Positions 1 through 13,664 of a stretch of 14,286 nt of DNA are shown piece by piece. How positions within the stretch are numbered: position 1 is the first letter of the stretch; the number at the start of each line of letters is the position of its first letter. The notes beneath the pieces were generated by a model that worked only from the letters and a program-made list of their open reading frames with translations, was not told the origin of the DNA and searched no databases. Source of the DNA: an uncultured Fibrobacterales bacterium. Lineage in GTDB: Bacteria > Fibrobacterota > Fibrobacteria > Fibrobacterales > CAWVXU01. The stretch is from contig CAWVXU010000067.1 in NCBI GenBank assembly GCA_963934255.1, positions 1-14,286 on the forward strand, written 5' to 3'. Both the position numbers and the translations under genes were made by a program.

Positions 1-288
1 ATCTTCTTTTCGAATGACAAAAAGCTCATCACCACCAGATGGAATAATGGTATCTCTCAATGTAAATGAGTAAAGATCTTCTCGAGAATCAGTTATAAAA
101 TAATCAGATAAGTTAATATCAATCGGGCCGGTGTTATAGAGTTCAGTTTAATCAGAATATTTTTCAGATTCGTCTAAAAAGTTAGGCGATGGATTTGGAG
201 TCGTCGGCTCGGCCAATTTGATTTTAGGATCACAAATATCATAGAGAAAAAAGAAACAAAGAAAATTTGGTGGATAAAAATTGTTTAT
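1..288 (-). pseudogene. Lamin-tail-domain (LTD) gene interrupted by an in-frame TAA; truncated by the window edge
   Basis: Reading through the TAA at 150-148 in the frame of ORF 148..408 gives KIKLAEPTTPNPSPNFLDESEKYSD*TELYNTGPIDINLSDYFITDSREDLYSFTLRDTIIPSGGDELFVIRKED, open to base 1. This matches the bacterial LTD pattern (INE...N...DE.G.YSDWIELYN.....IDLSGY.LTD......TIIP.GG). There is no in-frame ATG after the upstream gene. The 5' end is placed at ATA 288, which is a guess. Confidence 0.75.
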
Positions 289-304
289 GACGGAATCACT
301 TAAC

Positions 305-790
305 CTACTTAGGCATAGTGTCAGGAGAATTGTCGGTATCTTTTGATGGGTCAATATTTTTGGTAGTTGGAGAGATTTTAATAAGTGAAAGAATAAATAA
401 GGCGACAAAGAGAAATGCTGTACACATAATAGCTTCTATATATAAATCAAGCCCGATAGCCATACCTACACCAAGAAGCATAAACATCTTAGCAGCATCC
501 ATGGGGTTTTTGACAGGTGCTCTAAATCTTACAAAGGATCCAATCCCAAAAATCCCAAAGGCACGAGCAGTGCTATCACCAATGACATTAATTAAAAGTG
601 CCCCAGCCACACAAAGAAGTATTTGCGCCTTTGCTATTTTAAGCGGGTTTTCTTTTGAGAATGTTTTTTTCCAATCCGTAGGATGAAGAGCAATGATCAA
701 GCCAACAACGAACGCCAAAGTTAGCTGAAATAACATAATCTTAGGTTCAATATTAATTTCTGATGATATATCTGAAAAAAGTTCATTCAT
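305..790 (-). CDS. DUF4956-family (MgtC/SapB-like) membrane protein
   Basis: 161 aa with about 4-5 hydrophobic helices. Motif AFGIFGIGSFVRFRAPVKNPMDAAKMFMLLGVGMAIG matches the DUF4956 'VRFR.PVK.P.D' signature. 8-nt ATGAATGA overlap with the upstream gene. Confidence 0.85.
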   Translation of the reverse strand: MNELFSDISSEINIEPKIMLFQLTLAFVVGLIIALHPTDWKKTFSKENPLKIAKAQILLCVAGALLINVIGDSTARAFGIFGIGSFVRFRAPVKNPMDAAKMFMLLGVGMAIGLDLYIEAIMCTAFLFVALFILSLIKISPTTKNIDPSKDTDNSPDTMPK

Positions 791-2489
791 TGGTGTTTTC
801 CAATCTATTGCGTTTGTCTTCTTGATTTAAAATAGTTTTAAAGAGAAGAAGTTGTTGAGATTTTGTTTGTATGGCTTTTTGAAACCAAGGATTAGCGGAC
901 AATGGTTTTTCAAAAAATGATAACCCTTGGGATTCATAAACGAGCTGAGGTGAAATATCCCAATATTTATTTCTAATAGACTCAGCTTTTGGATGAATTG
1001 AATGTTTGATGGAATCTAGGAGTTCAACCCAAGCTTTGGCCCCAAGTTGACGTTGATTCCAAGAAGCATCGTCTTCAATGTATTTTAAGGTTTTCAAAAC
1101 TAGTTTGGGCGCGCGTTTTATGTTTTCATCACGCCATTGAAGAGCAAGCGGATGGTCTGTGTTTGATAAGCCTTTGAGAGAACTCAAGGTCGCCCATATG
1201 TGTTCATCGTATAGGGTTTCACGTATTTCCCAGGACCTTGGCGTATTGATAAAGCTAAGACTTTGCAAAACATCATTTTTATACTTGTTACGAATTTTAG
1301 AGGCTTTAAAAGCAAAGCTTCTGATCTCCCATGCTTGAGATGAGTCAAGACCTGCGAGTGATTGAAGCACATCACTTGGGTAGGAATTGAAATAATTGTG
1401 TCGTAATTGATAGACCCAATCTTCTTCGCATCCTTTGAGAAGTTGGAAAAATTCACTCGGATTGACATCAAAGTATTTTTGAATCAACTCTTTTTCCCAT
1501 GTAATAAACTCAAACCCAGCTAAAGCTTTAATTCCTGCAATTTGGATTTGCACATCCTTTGATTGAAGCGCTCTTGAAACCAAAGGGGCCTTTAATGCTT
1601 CAGAATTGCTCCCATTTAGGGAGTAGAGCGAGGCCAAGAAATTTTCATCAATGAGTATTGTTCTTAAATCATTCCAATCACCATGATGGAGCCCTGACAA
1701 CAAATACCCTTGGAGCATTGAATGCGATTGGTGATAAGATTTAAGGTAAACACTTCTAAGGTCATGAAGATTGGTAAAAGTTTGATCAGTTAAGAGTGAA
1801 TTTTGAACCATACATTTTTGATTCATGATAGGGTGATTTATGCTAATAGAATATTGATCAATTAATCGAGTGAGTATAGCTTGAAAAGCATAGTCAGTAT
1901 TGTGACCATTATTGTCTATATATGACCAACGGGGATTGTTGTGAGATAAGCGCTTGTAACCCTCGCGCATCAGCTTACGGAATGTCAGGCCCCAGAGTCC
2001 TTTTCTTGAGTTCATTTTATTACTGGGTTCAATAAGTTTTCCGAGTTTTTTCCGAGTTTGGGAAACGTCAAGACTAACATCACAAAAAAATACAGTCTCG
2101 GGTTCATTACCTTCCCAAAGCTCATTAACTAACTGCTCTACGAGAGGACTTTGTATGCCACGGATATCCTTGGCCATAACTAAAGGAGAGTACATTGATC
2201 GATCTGCGATGACAAATGTATTTTCATCAACTTCAAGGCTTCGAACTTTTTCATCAAAGACTTGTTTTTCTCTAGCCAAATACAATAAAAACTCAGTCCA
2301 AGTAGACATTGAAAGATTAGCAGGGTCTTTGGCTAAATTGCGAATGGTATTAGCAACTGGGCTGAGTAATTCTTTGCCTTGGCGTAAGTTAACGACGCGA
2401 TATCCCGATTCTTTAAGGGCAATTGACACCATCGAGGAAAGCGTCGTTTTTCCTGAACCATCAATTCCTTCAAAACAAATAAATGGCAT
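783..2489 (-). CDS. Thymidylate-kinase-fold protein fused to a C-terminal alpha-helical repeat region
   Basis: 568 aa. N-terminal FICFEGIDGSGKTT P-loop, TEFLLYLARE helix, and ADRSMYS (DR motif) of dTMP kinases. The roughly 350 extra C-terminal residues contain repeats of the form L.SL.G.....AW.IR. TAATG overlap with the porin gene. Confidence 0.85.
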   Translation of the reverse strand: MPFICFEGIDGSGKTTLSSMVSIALKESGYRVVNLRQGKELLSPVANTIRNLAKDPANLSMSTWTEFLLYLAREKQVFDEKVRSLEVDENTFVIADRSMYSPLVMAKDIRGIQSPLVEQLVNELWEGNEPETVFFCDVSLDVSQTRKKLGKLIEPSNKMNSRKGLWGLTFRKLMREGYKRLSHNNPRWSYIDNNGHNTDYAFQAILTRLIDQYSISINHPIMNQKCMVQNSLLTDQTFTNLHDLRSVYLKSYHQSHSMLQGYLLSGLHHGDWNDLRTILIDENFLASLYSLNGSNSEALKAPLVSRALQSKDVQIQIAGIKALAGFEFITWEKELIQKYFDVNPSEFFQLLKGCEEDWVYQLRHNYFNSYPSDVLQSLAGLDSSQAWEIRSFAFKASKIRNKYKNDVLQSLSFINTPRSWEIRETLYDEHIWATLSSLKGLSNTDHPLALQWRDENIKRAPKLVLKTLKYIEDDASWNQRQLGAKAWVELLDSIKHSIHPKAESIRNKYWDISPQLVYESQGLSFFEKPLSANPWFQKAIQTKSQQLLLFKTILNQEDKRNRLENTNE

Positions 2490-3613
2490 TAAATTTTTCC
2501 TTTGGTTGAGATTAAATATAAAAGTTGAAGGCCAACTTCATCCCAATCTAATCTTTCCTTAAACTCATTATATTTCATAAGATTATTTAAACTCAATGAT
2601 ACTTTTGGAGTTTTGTTATGGTTTAAAAATTTGAGCCATACTCCATTACGGATGTAATTAACATTACCCGTTTGCTTTTCAATTCTTTCGTATTGAGTCA
2701 GTGGTGCGACAACATAATCATCGTTGATTTTAAACGTATACTCGAGAAGTGTCCGGTTTGAAGAGATGCTTTGTTCATCAACAGAGCCAAGTGTCTTAAT
2801 GTAAAGAGCAACCTCAGGGTCAAATTTAATATACTCAAACTCAATACGCCAATGAGAAGGGGTGAAGCTCGCCCATAGGCTCAAGTTATTAGAACGATAG
2901 TATTCGTCTTCAAATAATTTGATTGCATCTGAAAGCCAGGAAGCGCCTAAGGAAGCATATGAAAATTCTTGAATAAACTCAATATTGGTCATTTGGATGA
3001 TTTCTAGCCCGGGTAATTTAACAATGTTTGGTGAATTGAAAAAGCTGAGACTTAGTTTCTGATCCCAGGGTGTTTTACTTTGAAATTGAAGCCCGTTGTG
3101 CCGCGAACTTGAAATATTATCCTTAATGATACTTGTTGATTTGGATCGTTCATGCACAGCTATATCATTTGAACTTCTTTGGAAATCTAACCCAAATGGA
3201 ACTTTAAGCCGACCGGATTTAAGCTCAATATATTTATTGGCTTTCATATAAATGAAGGCATTTAAAAGTTTTGGTTTGACGAAGTCATAACCGAAGTCAA
3301 GTCCAAAAGGTTGAGATTTCTTGGGTTTAATTTTGATTGCAACTTTAGCACTCGCCATTTCTTGAGTAAAGGAGCCTTCATCAGAAATGCCAATTAGTGA
3401 ACCACCTGGGTCAAGATAGATATGAGGCTTTAATCTAACAATTAGATTAAATTTATTTTTAAATGAAGCTTTTGATTTGGATAATAAGACACTCGAATCC
3501 TGTTCAGTCAAAGTTTGTCCATAAGATGTCCCCAACAGAAGTATTATTATAAGGACTATATAAGGAGAAGTGCGAGAATTGAATTGTAGTGAATAAACGA
3601 ATAACAACTTCAT
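2489..3613 (-). CDS. Outer-membrane porin, OprO/OprP (phosphate-selective) like
   Basis: 374 aa with a signal-peptide-like N-terminus (YIVLIIILLLGTSYG/Q). Segment YDFVKPKLLNAFIYMKANKYIELKSGRLKVPFGLDFQRSSNDIAVHERS fits the Porin_O_P 'L.DAY...G.FK.PFGLE...SS.....ERS' pattern. Amphipathic beta strands. ATGA overlap at 3610-3613. Confidence 0.75.
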   Translation of the reverse strand: MKLLFVYSLQFNSRTSPYIVLIIILLLGTSYGQTLTEQDSSVLLSKSKASFKNKFNLIVRLKPHIYLDPGGSLIGISDEGSFTQEMASAKVAIKIKPKKSQPFGLDFGYDFVKPKLLNAFIYMKANKYIELKSGRLKVPFGLDFQRSSNDIAVHERSKSTSIIKDNISSSRHNGLQFQSKTPWDQKLSLSFFNSPNIVKLPGLEIIQMTNIEFIQEFSYASLGASWLSDAIKLFEDEYYRSNNLSLWASFTPSHWRIEFEYIKFDPEVALYIKTLGSVDEQSISSNRTLLEYTFKINDDYVVAPLTQYERIEKQTGNVNYIRNGVWLKFLNHNKTPKVSLSLNNLMKYNEFKERLDWDEVGLQLLYLISTKGKI

Positions 3614-5694
3614 GAATTCACCCTTTTGGTTGCAAGTAACTCATAGCAACAGCGATAAAGGATATTACCAATTTGTTCATGTAAACTAAATGATTGCAAA
3701 AAGAAAGATGCCGCTTGTGAATCAATTTCACCAGTACCAACGGCTTTCAAAGCCTTCCTATGGGCGCGTCGTTCTGTTCTATTAATTTCAATTTCGAAAA
3801 ATTGGGCTTCACTCAAATCTTGGCTTTCTGGATTTTCAATAATATCACTGAGAATGAGAAAGTTTTTAATTAAATACTTTCTCATTCGAAGCTTACGAGT
3901 AACATCGCGTTCGAAATCATCCCCAGGAATCTGAGAAATCTCTAGTTCACTTTTAAATAGATAGATAAATAACTTATACAATTTTTGATATTCAAAAATA
4001 AAGCTCATCCAGATATCTAGTTCTTTGTTGACTTTTTTATCAGGCGAATGACCTTTGTATTGGAGGAGAAGAGATTGTATCTTCATCCTTGCCTCTTTAA
4101 GTTCGCGACGAAGCCTGTAGAAATATTTGTGGTTAGTGTGCTGAGGGTTACCGATCAGTTCAAAACACTCCATTGTTTTCTGATTAAGAATACCAATAAC
4201 ATGTTTTACTTTTTGAAGCTCTTCTTGTTCTTTTTCACCAAAATGGGTTTCATCACAAAATTCAACGCCATAGACGCTGGTTAATGGTTTGTTTAATTGT
4301 CCGATTTTTGAGTTGCGAATATAGAGCCATAAACGATTTGAAATTAACCACCCAAATAATAGTACATAGAGTAAATACAATAAGTAAGCCGAAGAGATAT
4401 GGAGTGCCATTTGAGGGAAAATAATTTTTGAATCGTTATCAACAAGGTCAACAGAATGAGGAATAAGTATTTCGATATAATTAACATATGGCTTAGAAAA
4501 TAAACCCCAAATAACCCATAGACTGACATGAATTACCAATTGTAAAATGGCAGTTTGTCTTGAGTCTAAGCTTTTGGTTCTTGTATGCCAATAAAGTGCA
4601 ATACTAGACCCAATAGGCATTCCACAGACGATGGCGAAGCTGTTGTAGAAATCCAGAGCCGTGGAAGTTTGCGCTAGAGTGATGATAATGATTAAAACGA
4701 TACTTGAGCTACCAAGTAGAATCGTCAAAACAGCACCAATTAACCCCATAACGTAATATTGAGCAAAGCCTAATGAATCGAGTGAACTTACGATTGTGTT
4801 CGACTCAGGATGAAAGGCCAGGGGAGCAAAGCCATTTTTGATCAAGTGAGCCCCGTAGAGTAACATCCCAAATCCTAAAAACGCATTAATTGTTGGATGA
4901 AACTCTCTACGTCCTTTAAAAAATGCTCGAAGAAGCATCCCTATAAGTACAATAAAAAGCGAGTTTTGAACTATATTGAAATGAAGTAAGAAGCCGATGA
5001 GGCTCCCGCCTATATGCGAGCCTAGTGAAAATAAAACGGCATGACTCAGCTGAATCGCTTCTACTTCTATGAGTCCAATGACAAAATAGGCAAAACTAGA
5101 GGGTGATTGTAATATGAATGTAAAGAATGCACTAGCTCCAATAATCCTAAAATCAGTTCGGCTAAAAAATTGAATCATCCGTTTGAGTTTGACGGAGCCT
5201 ATGGATTTGAAACCAGATTTAAGAAGCGCTAGTCCGATGATGAAAATTGCAACTCCACCAAAACCGAAATGAAAAATTTTCCTCCAATTGAGTTTTTTAA
5301 TTTCCAGACTTTTTCCATTTGAACATGTTTTATTTTTACAGACTTTAATATCATATTGCCTGGTAGATAATTTAGCTGGTAAAATAAATTGAACCTGTTG
5401 GTTAGTCCATGATGATATTTTTAGAGACGATTCAATTTCAGGATTTTCTTGATCTTGACTTAATATAACTCGACCGATTAAACTATCAAATCGTTCCCCC
5501 TGAATTGTGATTGTATCGCCAGCGAAAGCAGTTTTAGGATGTATTTTTTTAATTTTAGGATTAGTTTTGACCGCATCTTTGAGTGGGACCTGTAGTGTGG
5601 AATCACTTTGTGCAAAGCTATTTTGGGTACACAGGGCTAACGTAAATAGTGTTATAATAAAAATATGATGAAATGTTTCTAGAACTCTTTTCAT
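3610..5694 (-). CDS. Na/Pi-cotransporter family (NptA/YjbB/SLC34-like) protein with N-terminal signal peptide plus IPT/TIG domain and C-terminal PhoU-like domain
   Basis: 694 aa. GGVAIFIIGLALLKSGF...LQSPSS...LGSHIG and a second repeat FLGFGMLLYGAHLIKNGFAPL...LGSSS give the two Na_Pi_cotrans repeats. C-terminal EIEINRTERRAHRK...HEQIGN is PhoU-like. N-terminal PKIKKIHPKTAFAGDTITIQGERF...ISSWTNQQVQFILP is IPT/TIG. Confidence 0.85.
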   Translation of the reverse strand: MKRVLETFHHIFIITLFTLALCTQNSFAQSDSTLQVPLKDAVKTNPKIKKIHPKTAFAGDTITIQGERFDSLIGRVILSQDQENPEIESSLKISSWTNQQVQFILPAKLSTRQYDIKVCKNKTCSNGKSLEIKKLNWRKIFHFGFGGVAIFIIGLALLKSGFKSIGSVKLKRMIQFFSRTDFRIIGASAFFTFILQSPSSFAYFVIGLIEVEAIQLSHAVLFSLGSHIGGSLIGFLLHFNIVQNSLFIVLIGMLLRAFFKGRREFHPTINAFLGFGMLLYGAHLIKNGFAPLAFHPESNTIVSSLDSLGFAQYYVMGLIGAVLTILLGSSSIVLIIIITLAQTSTALDFYNSFAIVCGMPIGSSIALYWHTRTKSLDSRQTAILQLVIHVSLWVIWGLFSKPYVNYIEILIPHSVDLVDNDSKIIFPQMALHISSAYLLYLLYVLLFGWLISNRLWLYIRNSKIGQLNKPLTSVYGVEFCDETHFGEKEQEELQKVKHVIGILNQKTMECFELIGNPQHTNHKYFYRLRRELKEARMKIQSLLLQYKGHSPDKKVNKELDIWMSFIFEYQKLYKLFIYLFKSELEISQIPGDDFERDVTRKLRMRKYLIKNFLILSDIIENPESQDLSEAQFFEIEINRTERRAHRKALKAVGTGEIDSQAASFFLQSFSLHEQIGNILYRCCYELLATKRVNS

Positions 5695-6506
5695 GAGTTT
5701 ACCTCCACATCTTTATTTGTACCAGTCACTTTTTTCATACATTCGGTAAATTTTGAATATTGCTGTGGCTGACTATCACCGATGAGTTCATTCAGCCACT
5801 TGGGCCATTCTTTAAGAGATTTAACTTCAAGGATAACTTTTGTTTCGTCATAGATGCTGTCGGGCAAGTGATCCTTGCGCCATGAAAAGTCTCCTTCAAA
5901 TTCAGTCTGATTCATTTTATGGAAGCTCATCTCTTGATCTAATGAAATCCTTAGCCCCATCTCTTCATTTTCATAAGCATTTCTAGCATAATGAACAACA
6001 GCTACTGGCCTTATCTCATCATAGGCAAATTGTTTAATGACGGTTGAGAATGGTTTATCTTCAAATTCTGGGTTGACTTTTTTAAGTTCGTTTAAAAAAT
6101 GTTCATTTGACATATGTTCTTTTTTGGCCGTTTGTAAAAGTACACGTGGAATCATCAATCTTTTTTTTGAAGTAATATTTTGGTTCTTAGCTTTGATTTC
6201 CAAGAAGATATCCTGTTTATGTTCATATAGCTCATCGAGATTCAGTGCGTGCTCTATTAGTTCATGGTTGTAATAATAATATTCGCGCGCTCGAATCTTT
6301 GTGTTCTGTGTGGGGTCTTTTATACTTTGATTAAATAAACTGAGGTTATTCGTATCAAAATAAACGGTAGAGACCAGAGTCAAAACTTTGCCTTTGATAA
6401 AACTATGAGCATTGATATACTTCTTTAATTTTTTTTTGAATTGACGCGCTTCATCACCATCAAGTAGAAACTTGCGTTCTTTCCGGGATAAGGTCATTTG
6501 ATTCAT
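5691..6506 (-). CDS. VTC-domain protein (polyphosphate polymerase domain, CYTH/TTM fold)
   Basis: 271 aa with the VTC motifs in order: RKERKFLL, STVYFDT, KIRAREY, FLEIK, KKR, YARNAY, RISLD, ILEVK, YSKF. ATGA overlap with the downstream gene. Confidence 0.9.
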   Translation of the reverse strand: MNQMTLSRKERKFLLDGDEARQFKKKLKKYINAHSFIKGKVLTLVSTVYFDTNNLSLFNQSIKDPTQNTKIRAREYYYYNHELIEHALNLDELYEHKQDIFLEIKAKNQNITSKKRLMIPRVLLQTAKKEHMSNEHFLNELKKVNPEFEDKPFSTVIKQFAYDEIRPVAVVHYARNAYENEEMGLRISLDQEMSFHKMNQTEFEGDFSWRKDHLPDSIYDETKVILEVKSLKEWPKWLNELIGDSQPQQYSKFTECMKKVTGTNKDVEVNS

Positions 6507-6577
6507 ATCTAAAACTGCTTTTTATCTTAAAATAGATTGAAAAAGGGCTTTCAAGCTATGAGTTGCACTCTGATTAG

Positions 6578-6606
6578 ATTATATGATTAAAAAACCAATC
6601 ACTCTA
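6578..6606 (-). promoter_or_regulatory. Possible sigma70-type promoter for the VTC operon
   Basis: Perfect TATAAT on the minus strand at 6583-6578 in the 114-bp gap. The hexamer 17 nt upstream (TAGAGT) is only a weak -35. Confidence 0.3.
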
Positions 6607-6620
6607 GTCATTTTGAATAT

Positions 6621-7427
6621 CTAGACCGGTTTTTTGAGAATCACGAGATGATAGTGCCAAGTCAGTGGTAAAACAGGTGTTTCTTGAAGAGAAGATTGCT
6701 CTTGGTAGGCATTTTCATACTGTTTTTGCCAATTTTTGAAAATTGAAGGAGTGAGTGAAAATACTGAGGCATCGTCACGAGCCCCCATAGCCTTAATATG
6801 TTTCAATATCTCACGAAAGTTTTTAAAAGATTCAGAGGTTTTTTTTGACTCAAGAGTGATGATTTCAAACCCAACTTCATGCGCCAGTTTGTGAATGGAC
6901 TCTGCAGAGTAAAACTGTACTTGAGTTTTATCTAATGGCTGATACCCAAGTGCTTTGCTTGCACTCTGATAGAATTCAAAAAAATGTTCTTCACCGAATG
7001 CACTAAAGGCCATAATTGATTTTGGATCTAATCTATCATATGATTTCTGTAAAAATCCTTTAAAATCATTTAACCATTGGACAGTGGCATTTGAAATATA
7101 GGCACTAGCACAGGTAGGGAGGTTATGCTTTTCAATGTTGGCTTCAATAAAATTTGTACGCGCCTGAGTTCCCATTTGATTGACATTCATTTGACATTGA
7201 AAAAGCATTGATAGTGAGAAGTCTACGAAGTCAAGCTCCAAGCAATCAACGTCTTGAGCTAAAAGACAACTTAAGTGACCTGTACCCACGCCATATTCCA
7301 TGACTCGGCCCGGTATAAATTGACCTTTGAATACATCATAGAGCTCAAGAGCCATTTGCTTTTGCACTGAACTATGACGATGATAGCTTGCGCCAGCGTC
7401 ACTAAAATTTTTTTGAACAAAACTCAT
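6621..7427 (-). CDS. bioC: Malonyl-ACP O-methyltransferase BioC
   Basis: VQKNFSDAGASYHRHSSVQKQMA N-terminus, MEYGVGTG SAM motif, SNATVQW, ILKHIKAMGA, PLTWH; located in a biotin cluster. Start moved from TTG 7457 to ATG 7427, which removes the overlap with the upstream gene. Confidence 0.88.
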   Translation of the reverse strand: MSFVQKNFSDAGASYHRHSSVQKQMALELYDVFKGQFIPGRVMEYGVGTGHLSCLLAQDVDCLELDFVDFSLSMLFQCQMNVNQMGTQARTNFIEANIEKHNLPTCASAYISNATVQWLNDFKGFLQKSYDRLDPKSIMAFSAFGEEHFFEFYQSASKALGYQPLDKTQVQFYSAESIHKLAHEVGFEIITLESKKTSESFKNFREILKHIKAMGARDDASVFSLTPSIFKNWQKQYENAYQEQSSLQETPVLPLTWHYHLVILKKPV

Positions 7428-7441
7428 GCTTGCCTTAGGTT

Positions 7442-8098
7442 CTATTGGTTTAACCAATCCTCGTAAATTGGATCAAGTAAATAGTGTTCTGCATTATGAT
7501 CCAAGTTGTCGAGAACTGTTAATTTAGTAAACTGTGCTTCTTTGTTCAGAGCCGGAAGGATTTGCGGATTTAAAATTTCATCTTGAAGTCCAATAACTGT
7601 AGTACAGTCAAGCTCGCCTAATTCAGCAATTTCATTCATAGGGCTTGACTTCATGAGTTGTTCTAAGCCTGTATCTAGAACATCGATGGACACATCTTTA
7701 AGGCTGTCCATATAAGAATCTAGTTGCCCACCTCTGATGCCGACATTGCCAAGAAAAGAGATGAGAACAGGTTCTTTTTTGAGCTTAAGTGCTTTTTGCA
7801 TTTTAGACAAAACTCGCTGTTTGACGCCAAGTTTTTCATGACAAAAATCCAATGCAGGTGCGATAAATAAAACTTTTGAATTAATGAAACATTTCGCGAG
7901 CTTTTTGGCACCCAGACTCCAAGCCACAATGTGAGATGGTTTGTAGTCATCGATAATAATTTGAAGTTCTTTGTGGTTGATTGTTTGAGTAAATGACACC
8001 CAATGATGATCCATATCTGGATTCATGGCTTGAATATGCTCTTTAAATTCATTTGAAAAATGACAAGCCCAACCGGGTATCCATAAACAATTATTCAT
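7442..8098 (-). CDS. Alpha/beta hydrolase, probable pimeloyl-ACP methyl ester esterase (BioH-like)
   Basis: 218 aa. IPGW oxyanion loop, AWSLG nucleophile elbow, GLQDEIL acid, and LDH catalytic His. Sits between bioF and bioC. The exact subfamily (BioH/BioG/other) is not resolved. Confidence 0.8.
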   Translation of the reverse strand: MNNCLWIPGWACHFSNEFKEHIQAMNPDMDHHWVSFTQTINHKELQIIIDDYKPSHIVAWSLGAKKLAKCFINSKVLFIAPALDFCHEKLGVKQRVLSKMQKALKLKKEPVLISFLGNVGIRGGQLDSYMDSLKDVSIDVLDTGLEQLMKSSPMNEIAELGELDCTTVIGLQDEILNPQILPALNKEAQFTKLTVLDNLDHNAEHYLLDPIYEDWLNQ

Positions 8099-10094
8099 TT
8101 TCTAAAATTTCCTTAATAGCACTCACTAGGCTTTGTAGTTCAGCTTGAGTATGATTGGCATGTATATTAATTCGAAGGCGTGCAGTGTTTTTAGGAACAC
8201 TAGGGTGTCTTACTGCTTGGACCCAAAACCCTGCATCTTGGAGTTTCTGGCTCCACATCACTGCCCGTAGATTTGACCCAAGGACAACAGGAATAATTTG
8301 TGTTTGTGAGTTGAGGGTATCTAATCCAAGCCCTTTGATTTGATCTCGAAACCAAGAAGCTTTCTCTAAAAGTAAAGCTCGATCTTGATCCATTGATTGA
8401 ACCATATTCATAGAATTAAGAATCAAATTGGCGACCAATGGCGGGGTGGCTGTGGAGAAAATAAAACTCCGAGCCCTTTGTGTCAGATACGAGATGGTAG
8501 TTTTGTCACCACTGACAATAGCACCAGAACAGGCGAAAGCTTTACCCAAAGTACTCATGACAAGGTGGACTCTTTTTTCAAGACCAAGGTGATGCACCAT
8601 GCCTTTACCTTGATTACCCCAGATACCATCTGAATGAGCTTCATCAACTATCATAAAGGCATTAAAGCTTTCTGCAAGTTCAGTGATTTGTTCTAAGGGA
8701 GCGATGTCGCCGTCCATGGAAAAAACTGATTCACTCATGATGACTTGTTCTCCCGGGTATTGGGTCAAAAGTTGTTTCAAATGGGTGATATCATTGTGGC
8801 GATAACGGTGAAGCTTGGCCCCTGAGAGCTGGATCCCATCATAAATACTTGCGTGGTTAAGTTTATCAGAAAACACATGGGTATCTTTATTTGTTAAAGC
8901 TTGAATGACGCCTAAATTAGCGCTATATCCAGAATTAAAAAACAAAGCCGCCTCAGAGTTTTTCCATTGAGCCCATTTAGTTTCAAGTTCGTGGAATACT
9001 TGTGAATCCCCCCCTAATAGTCTTGAACCCAAAGCACCTTGCAGTCGAGGCTTGATATCTTTAAATCCATCAAGGGTGGGGAAGCCTAGTAGTGGTTTTG
9101 GTTTGTGCACTGCAGTTTCATTGACGAAGTTTGGGTGATTTGACACACCTAAATAATCGTTGGAAGTGAAGTCAATTTTTTGACAGTTAATTTCATAGGG
9201 CGTGAGTGATCTTGTCAGGCCCATTTTATCAATTTCAACTAGTTCAGAGTCAAGTCGCTGAGTAAGGAGATTTGATTTATTGGTTTGAATTGAGTCGTTG
9301 TGAGACATACTTGTTAAAGGCTTTATTTGCTCAATCGAATTGACTGTTTGAATAAGGTTTTTAAAATCGGGATGTTTATTTAACCATGAATCCCAACTAC
9401 GAGTAGTCCACTGACCCCAATCTTCCCAGGCAGGAAGCTGAATAATTGATTTTAATGAAGAGTTCGCTAATTCTAGGATAGTGTCTTTGTTGTTTTGAAT
9501 GAGTTCATTTTGACTAAGACAATTAGAGTGATGAGTAAAGGCAATTAGTTCAGATGGAATTACATTAGGACAACTCGCCAAATTTTGTAAACTAAGTAAA
9601 GTGTGATTGAGGGTGCCAAGTAGAGGCGAACAAGCCATAGTGATAGGCCATTCAAAGTGTTGTGCCAAATCTAACATATCAAATTTGGGTTTCATTGATA
9701 GTGGTACTTTGAGTCCACCAGCACCTTCAATAACAATGAGATCAAATTCTTGTGAATTTATGCGGTGCCAAGTAGCCTCCAGGTCACGCAGTTCGAAATT
9801 TCTATTCTCAAGCTCAAAGGCTCGGTGTGGAGAGCAGGGTTCCTTTAAAAAGATACCCGTTTCGATTTTCAGATTATTACTTAAATGGAAATCACTTGAA
9901 CCTACTAAGTGTTTTAAAAGCTGAGAATCACCTTCAGGAAAATTGAGTCCATTCCAATCGACTGAACCACACTGTATTGGCTTCCAATAACATACCTTGA
10001 GCCCTAAGTGTAAGGCCGCTTGAACCATAAATGCCGAGTAAAATGTTTTACCGACGTCGGTCCCTGTTCCGCTTATAAAAATTGCTTGACTCAT
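8091..10094 (-). CDS. bioD-bioF: Fused dethiobiotin synthetase / 8-amino-7-oxononanoate synthase (BioD-BioF)
   Basis: 667 aa single ORF. BioD half: FISGTGTDVGKT, WKPIQCG, SPH, IEGAGG, LGTLNHT. BioF half: DFTSNDYLG, GSRLLGG, FNSGYSAN, DKLNHAS, ESVFSMDGD, DEAH, STLGKAF (PLP lysine), ARLRI. Confidence 0.93.
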   Translation of the reverse strand: MSQAIFISGTGTDVGKTFYSAFMVQAALHLGLKVCYWKPIQCGSVDWNGLNFPEGDSQLLKHLVGSSDFHLSNNLKIETGIFLKEPCSPHRAFELENRNFELRDLEATWHRINSQEFDLIVIEGAGGLKVPLSMKPKFDMLDLAQHFEWPITMACSPLLGTLNHTLLSLQNLASCPNVIPSELIAFTHHSNCLSQNELIQNNKDTILELANSSLKSIIQLPAWEDWGQWTTRSWDSWLNKHPDFKNLIQTVNSIEQIKPLTSMSHNDSIQTNKSNLLTQRLDSELVEIDKMGLTRSLTPYEINCQKIDFTSNDYLGVSNHPNFVNETAVHKPKPLLGFPTLDGFKDIKPRLQGALGSRLLGGDSQVFHELETKWAQWKNSEAALFFNSGYSANLGVIQALTNKDTHVFSDKLNHASIYDGIQLSGAKLHRYRHNDITHLKQLLTQYPGEQVIMSESVFSMDGDIAPLEQITELAESFNAFMIVDEAHSDGIWGNQGKGMVHHLGLEKRVHLVMSTLGKAFACSGAIVSGDKTTISYLTQRARSFIFSTATPPLVANLILNSMNMVQSMDQDRALLLEKASWFRDQIKGLGLDTLNSQTQIIPVVLGSNLRAVMWSQKLQDAGFWVQAVRHPSVPKNTARLRINIHANHTQAELQSLVSAIKEILENE

Positions 10095-11917
10095 TGATTA
10101 TTTCGAGAAGACGAGTGAGAAGAAGAATAAGAAGAGTGTGAAGAAATGGCTAAGAGATACCATGCCGCATGAGGAATCCATTGCTCACCCCAACGCCATT
10201 TTTGATCGCCTTGATTCTTGGCTTCAATAGGAGCAAAATCAATTCCCAACTCATTAGTGAAGCCACCCGTGATGCCATTACAAATTCCACCAACACACGG
10301 TGGATAGGCTTTCTCATACTGCGGATTGTTTCGGCCATGTCCGTGAAGCATACACATATTATAGGGGTTAATACCTAAAATCCAATCAATTTGCATTCGA
10401 GCGAAATAGTTGAGATTGACTTTAAGTTCTTGAATACTCAGAGTATTTTGGTGGTCATATTTATTTTCATCAAAGTGTGCATCAAGAAAATTAAGCGCTA
10501 GCCAGCATGAAGAAGACAGTGAGCTGAGTCGAGCATTTTCACCCTGCCACCAATAGCCGGATTCATTTTCATGGGGAACAAAGAAGCTAGAGCGTGGTTC
10601 CTTGGCCAAATCTTTAACATATTGTCTAGCCAAACCAAATGGATTAAAAACTTCGCTAGAAATCGATAATTCAAAAGCTAAGGCCTTGATAATACATTCC
10701 ATAGCAGCCTGTTGTGTGGACTGAGTTAAAAATGGATAAGCTTCAATAAGTGTAATGACTGGTAGACCTGCATCTGCAGCGTGAAAAAAAGGCCTAGGTT
10801 CCGTATCTTGTTCATTGGATCTAAACCAGCCAACAAATTGATCATCTTGACTTTGTCGTTCGATAAGTTTTTTAGCCCAAGTATTGATGTCAGTTTGGTA
10901 ATCAAGACCTGCGCGAGTTAATTCGACCGACGCTATCAGCCCGCAATATTGATCAATAATATTCTCTCGCCCATCATCTAGATATGAGTTATTATTGATT
11001 TTTAAATGGTCGTAGGCAATTTGAGCCTGGGATAAATAATACTCACTAGTGAAATCGCCTTGAATGCCAAGACTTTGTGACATGACTGAGGCTTTGGCCA
11101 GAGCTGCAATACTCATTCCTGCGCCTTGTCTCAAACCAGCTTGCCATTTGTCGCTCTTAATTCCATCTTGAGTTGAATAAGTGCAAGCTTCTCTTTGCTC
11201 GAGATCCTTAGACCATTTGTCAAATACAGTCATTACCATGGCTCCACTTTGAGTCACCATACGAGCGAGGAAGTCTGCCCCATGAAGTGCTTCGTATGCC
11301 ATGCGTTCTTGAAGCTTGATATGAGCCAGATCATTTTGATGAGAAAACAATTCTCTACTCTTCATCAAGTTCCAAACAACCAGAGGAGTTTGTTGAGGAT
11401 TCATAAAATTAGCATAAGACAAGTGAGACAGATATTTGGAAACATCACCTGATGCATCGTACCAGCCCCCACTGAGGTCGAGTGGATCTATTGATTTAAG
11501 ATGCAGCTGAGTTTGATCACTTGAGTCTTTATAGAATGAACAATTTTTGTCTTTGACATTGTACTGATCTGAGCACCTCTGTACTTTAAAATAATTGAGA
11601 ACATCTGAAAGTGTTTCTTCAATGAGTAGGTTTTCTTTAATTTGAAAAATATCAGAATCAATTGAAGTATCATCAACGAGGACTCGAATAAATGCAGGCC
11701 CCTCAGTACAGGCTTCACTGAGGTCAAACTCATAAAAAAACCCTTTATCCCAATGAGGAATTCGACCGGCGCTACAGGCTGTGCCAGAGGCGAGAAGCTG
11801 TCCTGTTTCTGCATGGAAAGCTTGAAAATCAGGAGTTAGCTCTAACTCGGCTGAATTGAGCAGGGCTTTTTTTGGGGCATTTAATTCATACCCGATATGG
11901 TTGACGAGAATCTTCAT
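10091..11917 (-). CDS. Glycoside hydrolase family 9 with N-terminal Ig-like domain, no signal peptide (resembles the exo-acting Vibrio VC0615 / exo-beta-glucosaminidase-type GH9)
   Basis: VNHIGY N-terminus; GGWYDASGDVSKYLSHLSYANFMNPQQTP; YWWQGENARL; WILGINPY; GGICNGIT; WRWGEQWIPH. Start set to ATG 11917 (MKILVNHIGY) rather than TTG 11929. Confidence 0.9.
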   Translation of the reverse strand: MKILVNHIGYELNAPKKALLNSAELELTPDFQAFHAETGQLLASGTACSAGRIPHWDKGFFYEFDLSEACTEGPAFIRVLVDDTSIDSDIFQIKENLLIEETLSDVLNYFKVQRCSDQYNVKDKNCSFYKDSSDQTQLHLKSIDPLDLSGGWYDASGDVSKYLSHLSYANFMNPQQTPLVVWNLMKSRELFSHQNDLAHIKLQERMAYEALHGADFLARMVTQSGAMVMTVFDKWSKDLEQREACTYSTQDGIKSDKWQAGLRQGAGMSIAALAKASVMSQSLGIQGDFTSEYYLSQAQIAYDHLKINNNSYLDDGRENIIDQYCGLIASVELTRAGLDYQTDINTWAKKLIERQSQDDQFVGWFRSNEQDTEPRPFFHAADAGLPVITLIEAYPFLTQSTQQAAMECIIKALAFELSISSEVFNPFGLARQYVKDLAKEPRSSFFVPHENESGYWWQGENARLSSLSSSCWLALNFLDAHFDENKYDHQNTLSIQELKVNLNYFARMQIDWILGINPYNMCMLHGHGRNNPQYEKAYPPCVGGICNGITGGFTNELGIDFAPIEAKNQGDQKWRWGEQWIPHAAWYLLAISSHSSYSSSHSSSRNNQ

Positions 11918-12018
11918 ATTAGTACCCAAATGTCGTTTTTTAGGGATGAGAGAATTGTTTCTTTTACTAAAAATAGGTAAGTTATGTCTAAAAATAATTA
12001 TTCAATGTGGAGAAACAA

Positions 12019-12747
12019 ATGAAAAGTACAAATCCTGTTTGGAAAGACGAATTATTTCGTCCTTCAGGTGAGACATCTTCTGGCACTATGACCATTAATG
12101 GAGCTATTCAAAAAACAAGTTTACTTTTGATGATTGTTATTTTAACAGGTGCTTTTTCTTGGTGGCAGTTTGCGGAAGGAAGTTCAGTACCTTATCTTTG
12201 GATTGGTCTTGGTGGTGGATTAGTATTTGGTCTATGGACTAGTTTCTCTCCGACAAAAGCTCCCATGACTGCGCCTCTATATGCTGGTTTTCAGGGATTA
12301 TTCCTTGGCTATATCTCAGCTATCTATGGGCAGCAATATGCTGGAATTCCAGAGCAAGCCTTCTTTTTGACTATGCTTACTCTTGGCTTGATGCTTCTGC
12401 TTTATTATACTCGGATTATTCGCGTGACTGAGAAATTTAGAAGTATCATAACAATGGCTGTTGGTGGGATCGCCTTGACCTATCTATTTGCATTTATAGG
12501 TGGTATGTTCGGGATGGACACATCATTCTTATACGGCAATGGGATGATGAGTATTGGTATTAGTATCTTCGTTATTGTGATTGCATCACTCAGTTTGTTA
12601 ATGGACTTTGATAATATTGAGCGCGGCGCTCAAAGTCAAGCTCCTAAGTATATGGAGTGGTACTGTGCATTTGGGCTGATCGTGACACTCATTTGGCTAT
12701 ATCTTGAATTTTTGAGACTTCTATCCAAATTGCAATCTCGTGATTAA
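12019..12747 (+). CDS. Bax inhibitor-1/YccA family membrane protein
   Basis: MKSTNPV start, MTINGAIQKT, APLYAGFQGLFLG, and LLMDFDNIERG...APKYMEWYCAFGLIVTLIWLYLEFLRLL; about 7 TM helices. GGAG at 12009-12012 precedes ATG 12019. Confidence 0.92.
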   Translation: MKSTNPVWKDELFRPSGETSSGTMTINGAIQKTSLLLMIVILTGAFSWWQFAEGSSVPYLWIGLGGGLVFGLWTSFSPTKAPMTAPLYAGFQGLFLGYISAIYGQQYAGIPEQAFFLTMLTLGLMLLLYYTRIIRVTEKFRSIITMAVGGIALTYLFAFIGGMFGMDTSFLYGNGMMSIGISIFVIVIASLSLLMDFDNIERGAQSQAPKYMEWYCAFGLIVTLIWLYLEFLRLLSKLQSRD

Positions 12748-12818: not shown

Positions 12819-13664
12819 CTATTGATTTGCCTGAGGCCTGGTCAATTCAAGTACAAATCCACTGATGAAATAATCCTCTGCCTTGAGTTCGCTTTGAATC
12901 AAATCGGAATGAATTTTGATCGGCGGATAGTGGCCTAGATGAGAGAATTTTGCATCCAAAGGGTATTTGGCAACGACTTCTTTGTAATAAGGCAGTAAAA
13001 ATCGATTCATGAAGCATTTGGGATCATTGTACTTGGCCCACTTCGCCTTTGAGTACTTGAGGTGCTTGAGTAGGTTATTCATGAGTATTGGGCGTGTGAA
13101 TTTAAACTTATCAAACACATGGTAGGTGTGATCTGAAAGGTCCACCAAGTTCCAAGAGTAGCCTATATTGGGTAATAAGAGCTGTGATTGGTATTGATAG
13201 AACTCATCTAAGCTTGAAACATGCTCTAATACAAGGTGTGAAAATGAGTAATGATACTGGTTTTGGAATTGTTCTATGATTTCTTTAGCACTTCGGACAA
13301 TCTGGATATGAGGTTCGACTTCATTGAGTGGAAGTCCTTGGTATCGAGCAAAATATTCTGCGTGTTGAGACCTAAGTATTTGCTTAAAATCTTCATCTAT
13401 AGCCCAAGCAGGCTCAATTAAAAGAACATCTTGAGCTCCCTTATTGAGAAAGAAAAATGAAGTGAAAAATTGTTTTCCACAGCCAAATTCAACGACTTTT
13501 TTTTGCTTAAAAGCACCTTGAATCACTTCAGAATACTTGTTGAAAATCTTTTCGTAGGTATCGAGTGTCATCCACTGCTTTTCACGCCCTAGATTTTTTT
13601 TAAGACTAGAATAAAAGGTAGAATTAAGGTTTTTACGAAATAATTTCCAAATGTTATCAAGCAT
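12819..13664 (-). CDS. Class I SAM-dependent methyltransferase, substrate unknown
   Basis: 281 aa. VVEFGCG motif I, FSHLVLEHV, VDLSDH, MNR. Confidence 0.8.
   Translation of the reverse strand: MLDNIWKLFRKNLNSTFYSSLKKNLGREKQWMTLDTYEKIFNKYSEVIQGAFKQKKVVEFGCGKQFFTSFFFLNKGAQDVLLIEPAWAIDEDFKQILRSQHAEYFARYQGLPLNEVEPHIQIVRSAKEIIEQFQNQYHYSFSHLVLEHVSSLDEFYQYQSQLLLPNIGYSWNLVDLSDHTYHVFDKFKFTRPILMNNLLKHLKYSKAKWAKYNDPKCFMNRFLLPYYKEVVAKYPLDAKFSHLGHYPPIKIHSDLIQSELKAEDYFISGFVLELTRPQANQ

Follow-up and report, generated by a model that had tools for sequence, protein, structure and literature searches.

The window analysed here, a 14,286-nucleotide stretch that forms the entire contig C67 of the 2.67-Mb, 92% complete genome of an uncultured Fibrobacterales bacterium, carries a real, conserved and uncharacterised gene module centred on a VTC-family enzyme with an intact Vtc4-type active site. 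Five overlapping genes encode this enzyme, an NptA/SLC34-like membrane protein, an OprO/P-like porin, a thymidylate kinase (TMK)-like protein with a long helical tail (the TMK-repeat protein) and a small DUF4956/MgtC-like membrane protein, and are followed by a broken LTD gene (Table 1). In the reading that we favour, to which sequence comparison lends about an even chance, the module makes polyphosphate (polyP) in the manner of yeast VTC and would pass the chain through a DUF4956 oligomer and the porin to the periplasm or cell surface.

A Vtc4-type enzyme in a conserved gene set

The VTC-family protein has no hydrophobic segment and is soluble by hydropathy, and it is predicted to be a cytoplasmic polyP polymerase. 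A single-sequence search of the Protein Data Bank (PDB) returned nothing relevant and a family profile was needed, which matched Vtc4 at an E-value of 1e-30, better than Vtc2/3 (1e-12 to 1e-13). Likewise, the structural model (pLDDT 92.6) has its closest fold in Vtc4 (3g3q; Z 20.5, root-mean-square deviation (rmsd) 3.4, 247 residues aligned), with yeast Vtc4/Vtc2 chains spanning Z 19.2-20.5 and the hydrolase ygiF next (Z 13.8, rmsd 3.3, 186 aligned). Mutation of nine residues in Vtc4 lowers polyP (bioRxiv 10.1101/2023.01.27.525886), and by profile alignment all nine catalytic residues are present in the window protein, where K12, R72, R74, K105, Y173, R175, E227, S251 and K252 correspond to Vtc4 K200, R264, R266, K281, Y359, R361, E426, S457 and K458. 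Vtc4 K458 distinguishes active Vtc4 from inactive Vtc2/3, and its equivalent, K252, is invariant in 92/92 and 66/66 alignment rows, with S251 also invariant in the 66 rows of alignment A6. Furthermore, the basic exit residues of Vtc4, R196, K294, R373 and K428, are paired by R8, K114, R186 and K229. The VTC identity proposed in the initial annotation is thus upheld by both active site and fold.

The TMK-repeat gene, located with a profile of the repeat domain, occurs in 91 of 301 genomes from the phylum to which Archangium gephyra belongs (including G437, used in that count alone), in 14 of 301 Planctomycetota-phylum genomes and in 2 of 251 genomes of the window's own phylum. We read 84 loci, comprising 23 from an earlier set, one from the window's phylum (G043), all 13 new planctomycete places and 47 hand-picked from 111 myxobacterial places, and removal of four duplicates, one locus cut before the repeat and nine with short flanks left 70. 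Among these, VTC was found in 65, a DUF4956-like gene in 56 and a porin in 53 (homologous barrels), followed by a DUF3108-like gene (38), CotH or the CotH-linked U520 family (25) and an acid phosphatase (23), while NptA (3), LTD (3), PhoU-like (3) and PPDK-like (2) genes were rare. The CotH-type and DUF3108-like partners alternate, with both present in only one locus. As a control, none of 57 plain-TMK loci had a VTC, DUF4956 or NptA match; the porin part of this control is uninformative, as the single-sequence search used also missed true porins. This gene-neighbourhood survey bears out co-conservation across phyla, as had been anticipated, although many of the loci are close kin and a quick VTC tree resolves about seven groups.

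Within the window's phylum, G043 carries the order porin, TMK-repeat, DUF4956, intact LTD, VTC and NptA. A VTC-anchored metagenome scan gave five loci, of which one is the window organism itself and one stops just past VTC; in the other three VTC is followed by NptA, and two of these have DUF4956, porin, TMK-repeat and DUF3108-like genes, in that order, upstream. In the VTC tree the NptA-linked rows form three groups on an open fork, compatible with one origin or several.

Two TMK-repeat matches occur in 20 of the 91 carrier genomes, G488, G424 and G394 among them, one of these cases being a gene that is split. Both matches were read in G488 and G424, each of which has one of the CotH type and one of the DUF3108 type. 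Three planctomycete loci (L110, L111, L112) have three to five tandem CotH genes and then a U520-family gene. PPDK N-terminal (ATP-grasp) proteins lie beside the module at L015:4429-6309, L020:37-1731, L148:4508-6559 and L167:1-1074, the last with a lipoprotein-like start. L006 runs VTC, NptA and TMK-repeat and then continues, at 11861-15013, with arsD, arsA and an Acr3-like gene, and at L018:7929-11854 the TMK-repeat gene stands directly behind an ABC transporter with no VTC upstream, the contig ending after it.

Membrane, transporter and kinase-like components

The DUF4956-like protein has three clear hydrophobic segments by hydropathy and an invariant G-x-G-x-F-x-R-F motif, with R88 and K94 invariant and R90 nearly so. 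Neither the window copy nor that of G043 has a C-terminal soluble (ACT-like) domain. Its PF16316 score (24 bits) lies below the cut-off of 30.6; close homologues pass, and hhalign pairs it with an above-cut-off DUF4956 member at a probability of 98.5. That it is always paired with VTC and keeps basic residues without variation leads us to infer that it may act as the channel. No VTC-DUF fusion was present among 7997 longer candidates, which is weak evidence, and two apparent repeat-DUF4956 fusions (P0272, P0273) were set aside as probable frameshift artefacts, having no kinase and junctions that look out-of-frame. The porin matches PF07396 over a single 78-residue stretch (24.4 bits against a cut-off of 20.9) and has a signal-like hydrophobic stretch at 18-36 by hydropathy.

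The NptA-like protein consists of an N-terminal hydrophobic leader, an IPT/TIG domain at 46-129 and a two-repeat core, and because of the leader it is plausible that the IPT domain lies outside the cytoplasmic membrane. In SLC34 proteins inorganic phosphate (Pi) is bound by two QSSS motifs with nearby Thr/Asn residues (bioRxiv 10.64898/2026.05.25.727688). The genome's own pst-cluster NptA has QSSS at both motifs, whereas the window copy reads QSPS at 196 and GSSS at 328, with the following Asn/Thr positions also changed. An intact pair is found in none of seven operon NptA copies, in which the first motif reads QSPS, QSST, QLTT, QSTS, QSST, QSAT and QSAT and the second GSSS, QSSG, QGPG, QGPA, QGPG, QGHG and QGHG. 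Since each motif of the window copy is one change from QSSS, residual transport is possible; none-the-less, in our reading it is an optional subunit for which a transport function is doubtful. Neither a place for NptA in the core of the module nor ordinary Na/Pi import by it is supported, given its rarity (3/70 loci) and its motifs.

The TMK-repeat protein has a TMK-fold kinase at 1-215 and, fused to it, a repeat domain made up entirely of helices at about 240-568, and its search gave 640 homologues in the full-length range among 8000 scored. It is a paralogue of the canonical tmk of the same genome (C29:24006-24620), and its TMK domain scores 74.1 bits against TIGR00041, under the cut-off of 83.25. 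The P-loop and DR motif are invariant in 47/47 rows, and the domain retains the ATP-side motifs and R50/E66/R73 and has gained an invariant, basic R162-K163-G164 lid. The dTMP-binding EP motif is lost, and so is the likewise dTMP-specific Tyr-Gln pair in AYQG, the window reading R-Q-G and M105-A106. The model (pLDDT 92.5) reaches Z 22.4 to TMK and 20.1 to PPK3. PPK3 offers a precedent for a polyP-handling TMK fold (bioRxiv 10.1101/2024.08.28.610084). We considered and rejected a PPK3 identity for the window domain, as it scores 46 bits to the PPK3 structure against 119 to bacterial TMK, in line with the lower Z; a Pfam scan of the window likewise found no second TMK-like gene that could form a PPK3-type paired subunit. 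The repeat domain, folded together with the kinase, has HEAT-like Atlas leads all below 0.9, and its likeness to PC-repeat solenoids (Z 12-13) lies within helical-repeat noise.

An LTD remnant after the DUF4956-like gene had been noted, and we confirm both the LTD domain match and an in-frame TGA at 148-150, where intact LTDs carry Trp; the frame is also disturbed upstream. The stop is common to the contigs of three of four sequencing runs (X1, X2, X5), which makes the gene a true pseudogene in the population, while the diverged contig of the fourth run (X8) has a Trp codon at this position plus two one-base gaps. The X2 and X6 contigs depart from the window at 83-85 with similar loose ends, and strains therefore differ within the broken gene. 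In G043 an intact 207-residue LTD protein follows the DUF4956 gene, and the window genome's copy of the module has lost this partner, its LTD gene decaying.

Direction of transport and competing explanations

In the favoured reading, the VTC-family enzyme probably polymerises phosphate from ATP and would pass the chain, as it grows, to a membrane oligomer of DUF4956; polyP would thereby probably reach the periplasm and then, through the porin, the cell surface. The TMK-repeat protein, its acceptor changed, may serve in nucleotide recycling or in regulation, and exported partners (CotH, PPDK-like, DUF3108-like or LTD) could use the polymer as a phosphoryl donor or surface polyanion. A more ambitious version is put forward tentatively, with less than even expectation: that this is a bacterial polyP secretion system with a Vtc4-type polymerase, an MgtC-family channel and interchangeable outer conduits (a porin, or a pumpless adaptor plus TolC), in which polymerisation-driven export would power extracytoplasmic phosphorylation and surface chemistry. 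The TMK-repeat protein would then be a new subunit for recycling nucleotides, and the NptA paralogue a repurposed, non-transporting one.

The best argument for an outward direction comes from 40 relatives. A single VTC gene is present in 39 of these and PPK1 in 11, so VTC is kept regardless of PPK1. In the 27 VTC loci that we read (of 39; from 27 order-level relatives), VTC is always paired with a DUF4956-like gene. Two loci (family f2) have VTC followed by DUF4956 and two (f4) VTC, DUF4956, DUF2490 and CotH, while all 23 loci of family f3 (L185, L188, L189, L191-L197, L199-L211) have the order DUF4956, HlyD-type adaptor, OEP/TolC-like duct, VTC and LTD protein. Among the f3 members scanned, the HlyD_3 adaptor was matched in 10/10 and the OEP duct in 8/10. 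No ABC, RND or MFS gene lies inside the f3 DUF4956-to-LTD run, where DUF4956 occupies the pump's place. Adaptor-TolC ducts are exit routes, and their presence in place of the porin points to export. At L188 the LTD gene is followed by another OEP gene. The envelope-spanning layout described initially is supported, with relatives building it around an efflux-type duct; a core role for NptA is not. The claim of PPK1 independence also divides: neither PPK1 nor PPK2 was detected in the window genome (92% complete) and G043 has no PPK1, but PPK1 is present in 7 of 12 other carriers, which speaks against the module as a PPK1 substitute.

Several observations weigh against export. The adaptor-duct argument comes from one family, a variant without the TMK-repeat gene, and its matches are weak (EmrA at E 0.008; no PDB match for the duct). 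The porin itself gives no direction. No DUF4956 gene is nearby in 14 of the 70 TMK-repeat loci and no porin in 17, and the MgtC-like DUF4956 protein has no match to the Vtc1 channel family in a Pfam scan and no PDB relative in our search. We found no biochemistry on any bacterial member in the literature searched, and the authors of a study of S. intermedius suggest that polyP stays cytoplasmic (bioRxiv 10.1101/2024.04.20.589940). Moreover, E10, which falls on the second Glu of ExExK in TTM proteins, is retained in 65/66 rows where Vtc4 has Thr (T198), and on this account a second-metal hydrolase site could exist in the VTC enzyme. TTM hydrolases have an acidic patch at Vtc4's basic positions, and the hydrolase depends little on the residue that corresponds to K458 (PMC4641920). 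In the window protein the second-metal patch retains E10 and is basic like Vtc4 at R8, K114/R116 and K229, with AtTTM3 numbering inferred without superposition. The invariance of K252 and the basic character of most patch positions make a polymerase more likely than a hydrolase.

Retention of E10 would also suit inward traffic, in which the porin admits external polyP or pyrophosphate, DUF4956 passes it inward, and VTC (reversed or as a hydrolase) with the TMK-like kinase recovers phosphate and energy; we regard this as unlikely, though the strongest of the rivals. Upstream of the myxobacterial copies we found a Pho-like tandem GTNAC box with an 11-base period in 15/33 and 4/15 regions (21 and 8 sites where 0.1 and 0.3 would be expected, with a pattern chosen post hoc and non-independent kin), which also stands before 2/4 myxobacterial pstS genes; a search with an E. 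coli-type Pho consensus gave little signal. The acid phosphatase (23/70, often beside myxobacterial copies), PhoU-like (3) and NptA-like (3) neighbours fit scavenging as well, as does the existence of polyP-dependent TMK-fold kinases (PPK3). However, phosphate starvation induces the VTC genes of yeast as well, so a Pho box leaves the direction unfixed, and the exit ducts in all 23 f3 loci and the Vtc4-like basic tunnel argue against uptake. The window genome has its own Pho cluster (G000:C6:31813-42000) with TAACA-N6-TAACA tandem boxes scoring 17-19 on a matrix built from them, whereas the best box upstream of the window's five-gene set scores 6.0, and this copy accordingly does not look phosphate-regulated. 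The suggestion that the operon imports Pi directly into polyP found no specific support either. The Pho cluster holds pstB, phoU, pstS, pstC, pstA, the canonical nptA, a porin-like gene and a two-component pair, named from the look of their sequences and PF12849, not all having been scanned.

We consider it improbable that VTC instead makes an internal store from Pi supplied by the porin and NptA, with DUF4956 as an MgtC-like regulator or anchor and no channel. The lack of detectable PPK1/PPK2 in the window genome and of PPK1 in G043 would fit a store, and MgtC regulates ATP synthase and PhoR, but NptA is rare and motif-eroded, PPK1 coexists with the module in 7/12 carriers, and the adaptor, duct and exported kinase partners would be left unexplained. 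Little credence, similarly, goes to export of another phosphoryl donor, a short polyP or unusual nucleotide made by the two cytoplasmic enzymes to fuel exported CotH/PPDK-like kinases. This would account for a TMK domain that keeps its P-loop and DR, has lost its dTMP motifs and gained the RKG lid, and for exported kinase-fold partners (CotH/U520 and PPDK) in 27/70 loci, both in one; against it, the order-level relatives carry VTC and DUF4956 without a TMK-repeat gene, and no exported kinase is visible in the window, with only a CotH fragment elsewhere.

Locus setting, known systems and significance

The initial annotation described five open reading frames chained by four start/stop overlaps, and their coordinates, shared minus strand and junction letters all match: ATGA at 5691-5694 and 3610-3613, TAATG with the common base 2489, and ATGAATGA at 783-790. 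Its domain labels (VTC, Na/Pi transporter with IPT, porin, TMK, DUF4956-like, LTD) agree with a Pfam hidden Markov model search, DUF4956 being below cut-off.

Table 1. Components of the module and their positions in the window.
Feature	Position	Strand	Length and domain match
VTC-family tunnel enzyme (Vtc4-like)	5691-6506	-	271 aa (amino acids); PF09359 E 9e-30
NptA/SLC34-like membrane protein	3610-5694	-	694 aa; Na_Pi_cotrans 5e-25, TIG 2e-6
OprO/P-like outer-membrane barrel	2489-3613	-	374 aa; Porin_O_P (PF07396) E 2e-5
TMK-repeat protein	783-2489	-	568 aa; Thymidylate_kin (PF02223) E 2e-16
DUF4956/MgtC-like inner-membrane protein	305-790	-	161 aa; DUF4956 4e-5, MgtC 3e-6, both sub-cut-off
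Broken LTD gene	1-300, upstream limit approximate	-	LTD E 9e-5 on bases 1-147; truncated by contig end

One marine contig covers 1-6168 unbroken with 37 differences and no gap, although it may derive from the source sample, and a JGI contig is 99.9% identical to the window over 108-6688. Marine metagenomes hold matching DNA, with six of the 19 runs listed, from three studies, containing at least half of the words; the one RNA run had a share of 0.05. A Fib_succ_major gene in an order-level relative is in keeping with the Fibrobacterota. Scans for sigma-70 promoters (22 observed, 25.2 expected by chance) and terminators (3 against 4.4) were at chance level. A biotin cluster lies 114 bases upstream on the same strand (6621-10094, minus; bioC, a bioH-like hydrolase and a 667-residue bioD-bioF fusion), followed by a GH9 gene with a CelD_N domain (10091-11929, minus), a Bax-inhibitor-1-like membrane protein (12007-12747, plus) and a methyltransferase-like frame with only a weak CmoB match (12819-13664, minus).

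Of the systems already known, the yeast VTC complex (Vtc4/Vtc3/Vtc1; PDB 3g3q, 8i6v, 7ytj, 9umg) shares with the module the tunnel fold, the nine catalytic residues and a soluble polymerase adjoining a small membrane protein. The window enzyme differs in having no SPX or fused membrane domain and Glu in place of T198, its membrane partner is MgtC-like rather than Vtc1/PF02656, and the porin and TMK-repeat protein are extra. As neither SPX nor PF02656 was matched among the window proteins scanned, the module does not belong to the yeast VTC complex if that is defined by its SPX domain and its Vtc1-type subunits. Gram-positive pel loci carry a cotH/VTC/DUF4956 accessory trio, to which the accessible texts give no function (PMC7112168; bioRxiv 10.1101/2024.04.20.589940), and thus the same VTC and DUF4956/MgtC-like pair. 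The window, in contrast, has bio genes and no pel genes upstream, shows no CotH and brings Gram-negative envelope parts. The second of these papers reports that the trio was not found outside pel loci, whereas we see it outside them at L002, L009, L014, L022 and L186. Thymidylate kinase and archaeal PPK3 (PDB 2plr/5h70) share the TMK fold, P-loop and DR with the TMK-repeat protein, and PPK3 likewise has no EP; the window protein is nearer bacterial TMK and is a single chain with a 330-residue helical repeat tail. With SLC34/NptA it is the two-repeat core that is common, the altered QSSS motifs and the added IPT domain being the differences.

In the literature covered, which leaves out most subscription papers, neither the version with TMK-repeat and porin nor the one with adaptor and duct was the subject of any study that we found, and the 'VTC' of PMC6514570 is an unrelated domain. 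The initial annotation knew of no characterised system with this composition; the VTC/DUF4956/CotH core is in print without a function. In the reviews consulted, the polyP enzymes of bacteria are PPK1 and PPK2, and VTC4 is listed as eukaryotic. New from the window are a module-bearing genome in which neither PPK1 nor PPK2 is detectable, a motif-eroded NptA paralogue, a copy of the module with no Pho-type box, and an LTD gene in decay. If a working bacterial Vtc4 is indeed coupled to export, it would supply the envelope with polyP and exported CotH-type kinases with a phosphoryl donor, would assign a function to MgtC/DUF4956 proteins and would be a candidate for the ancestor of the eukaryotic VTC machine.

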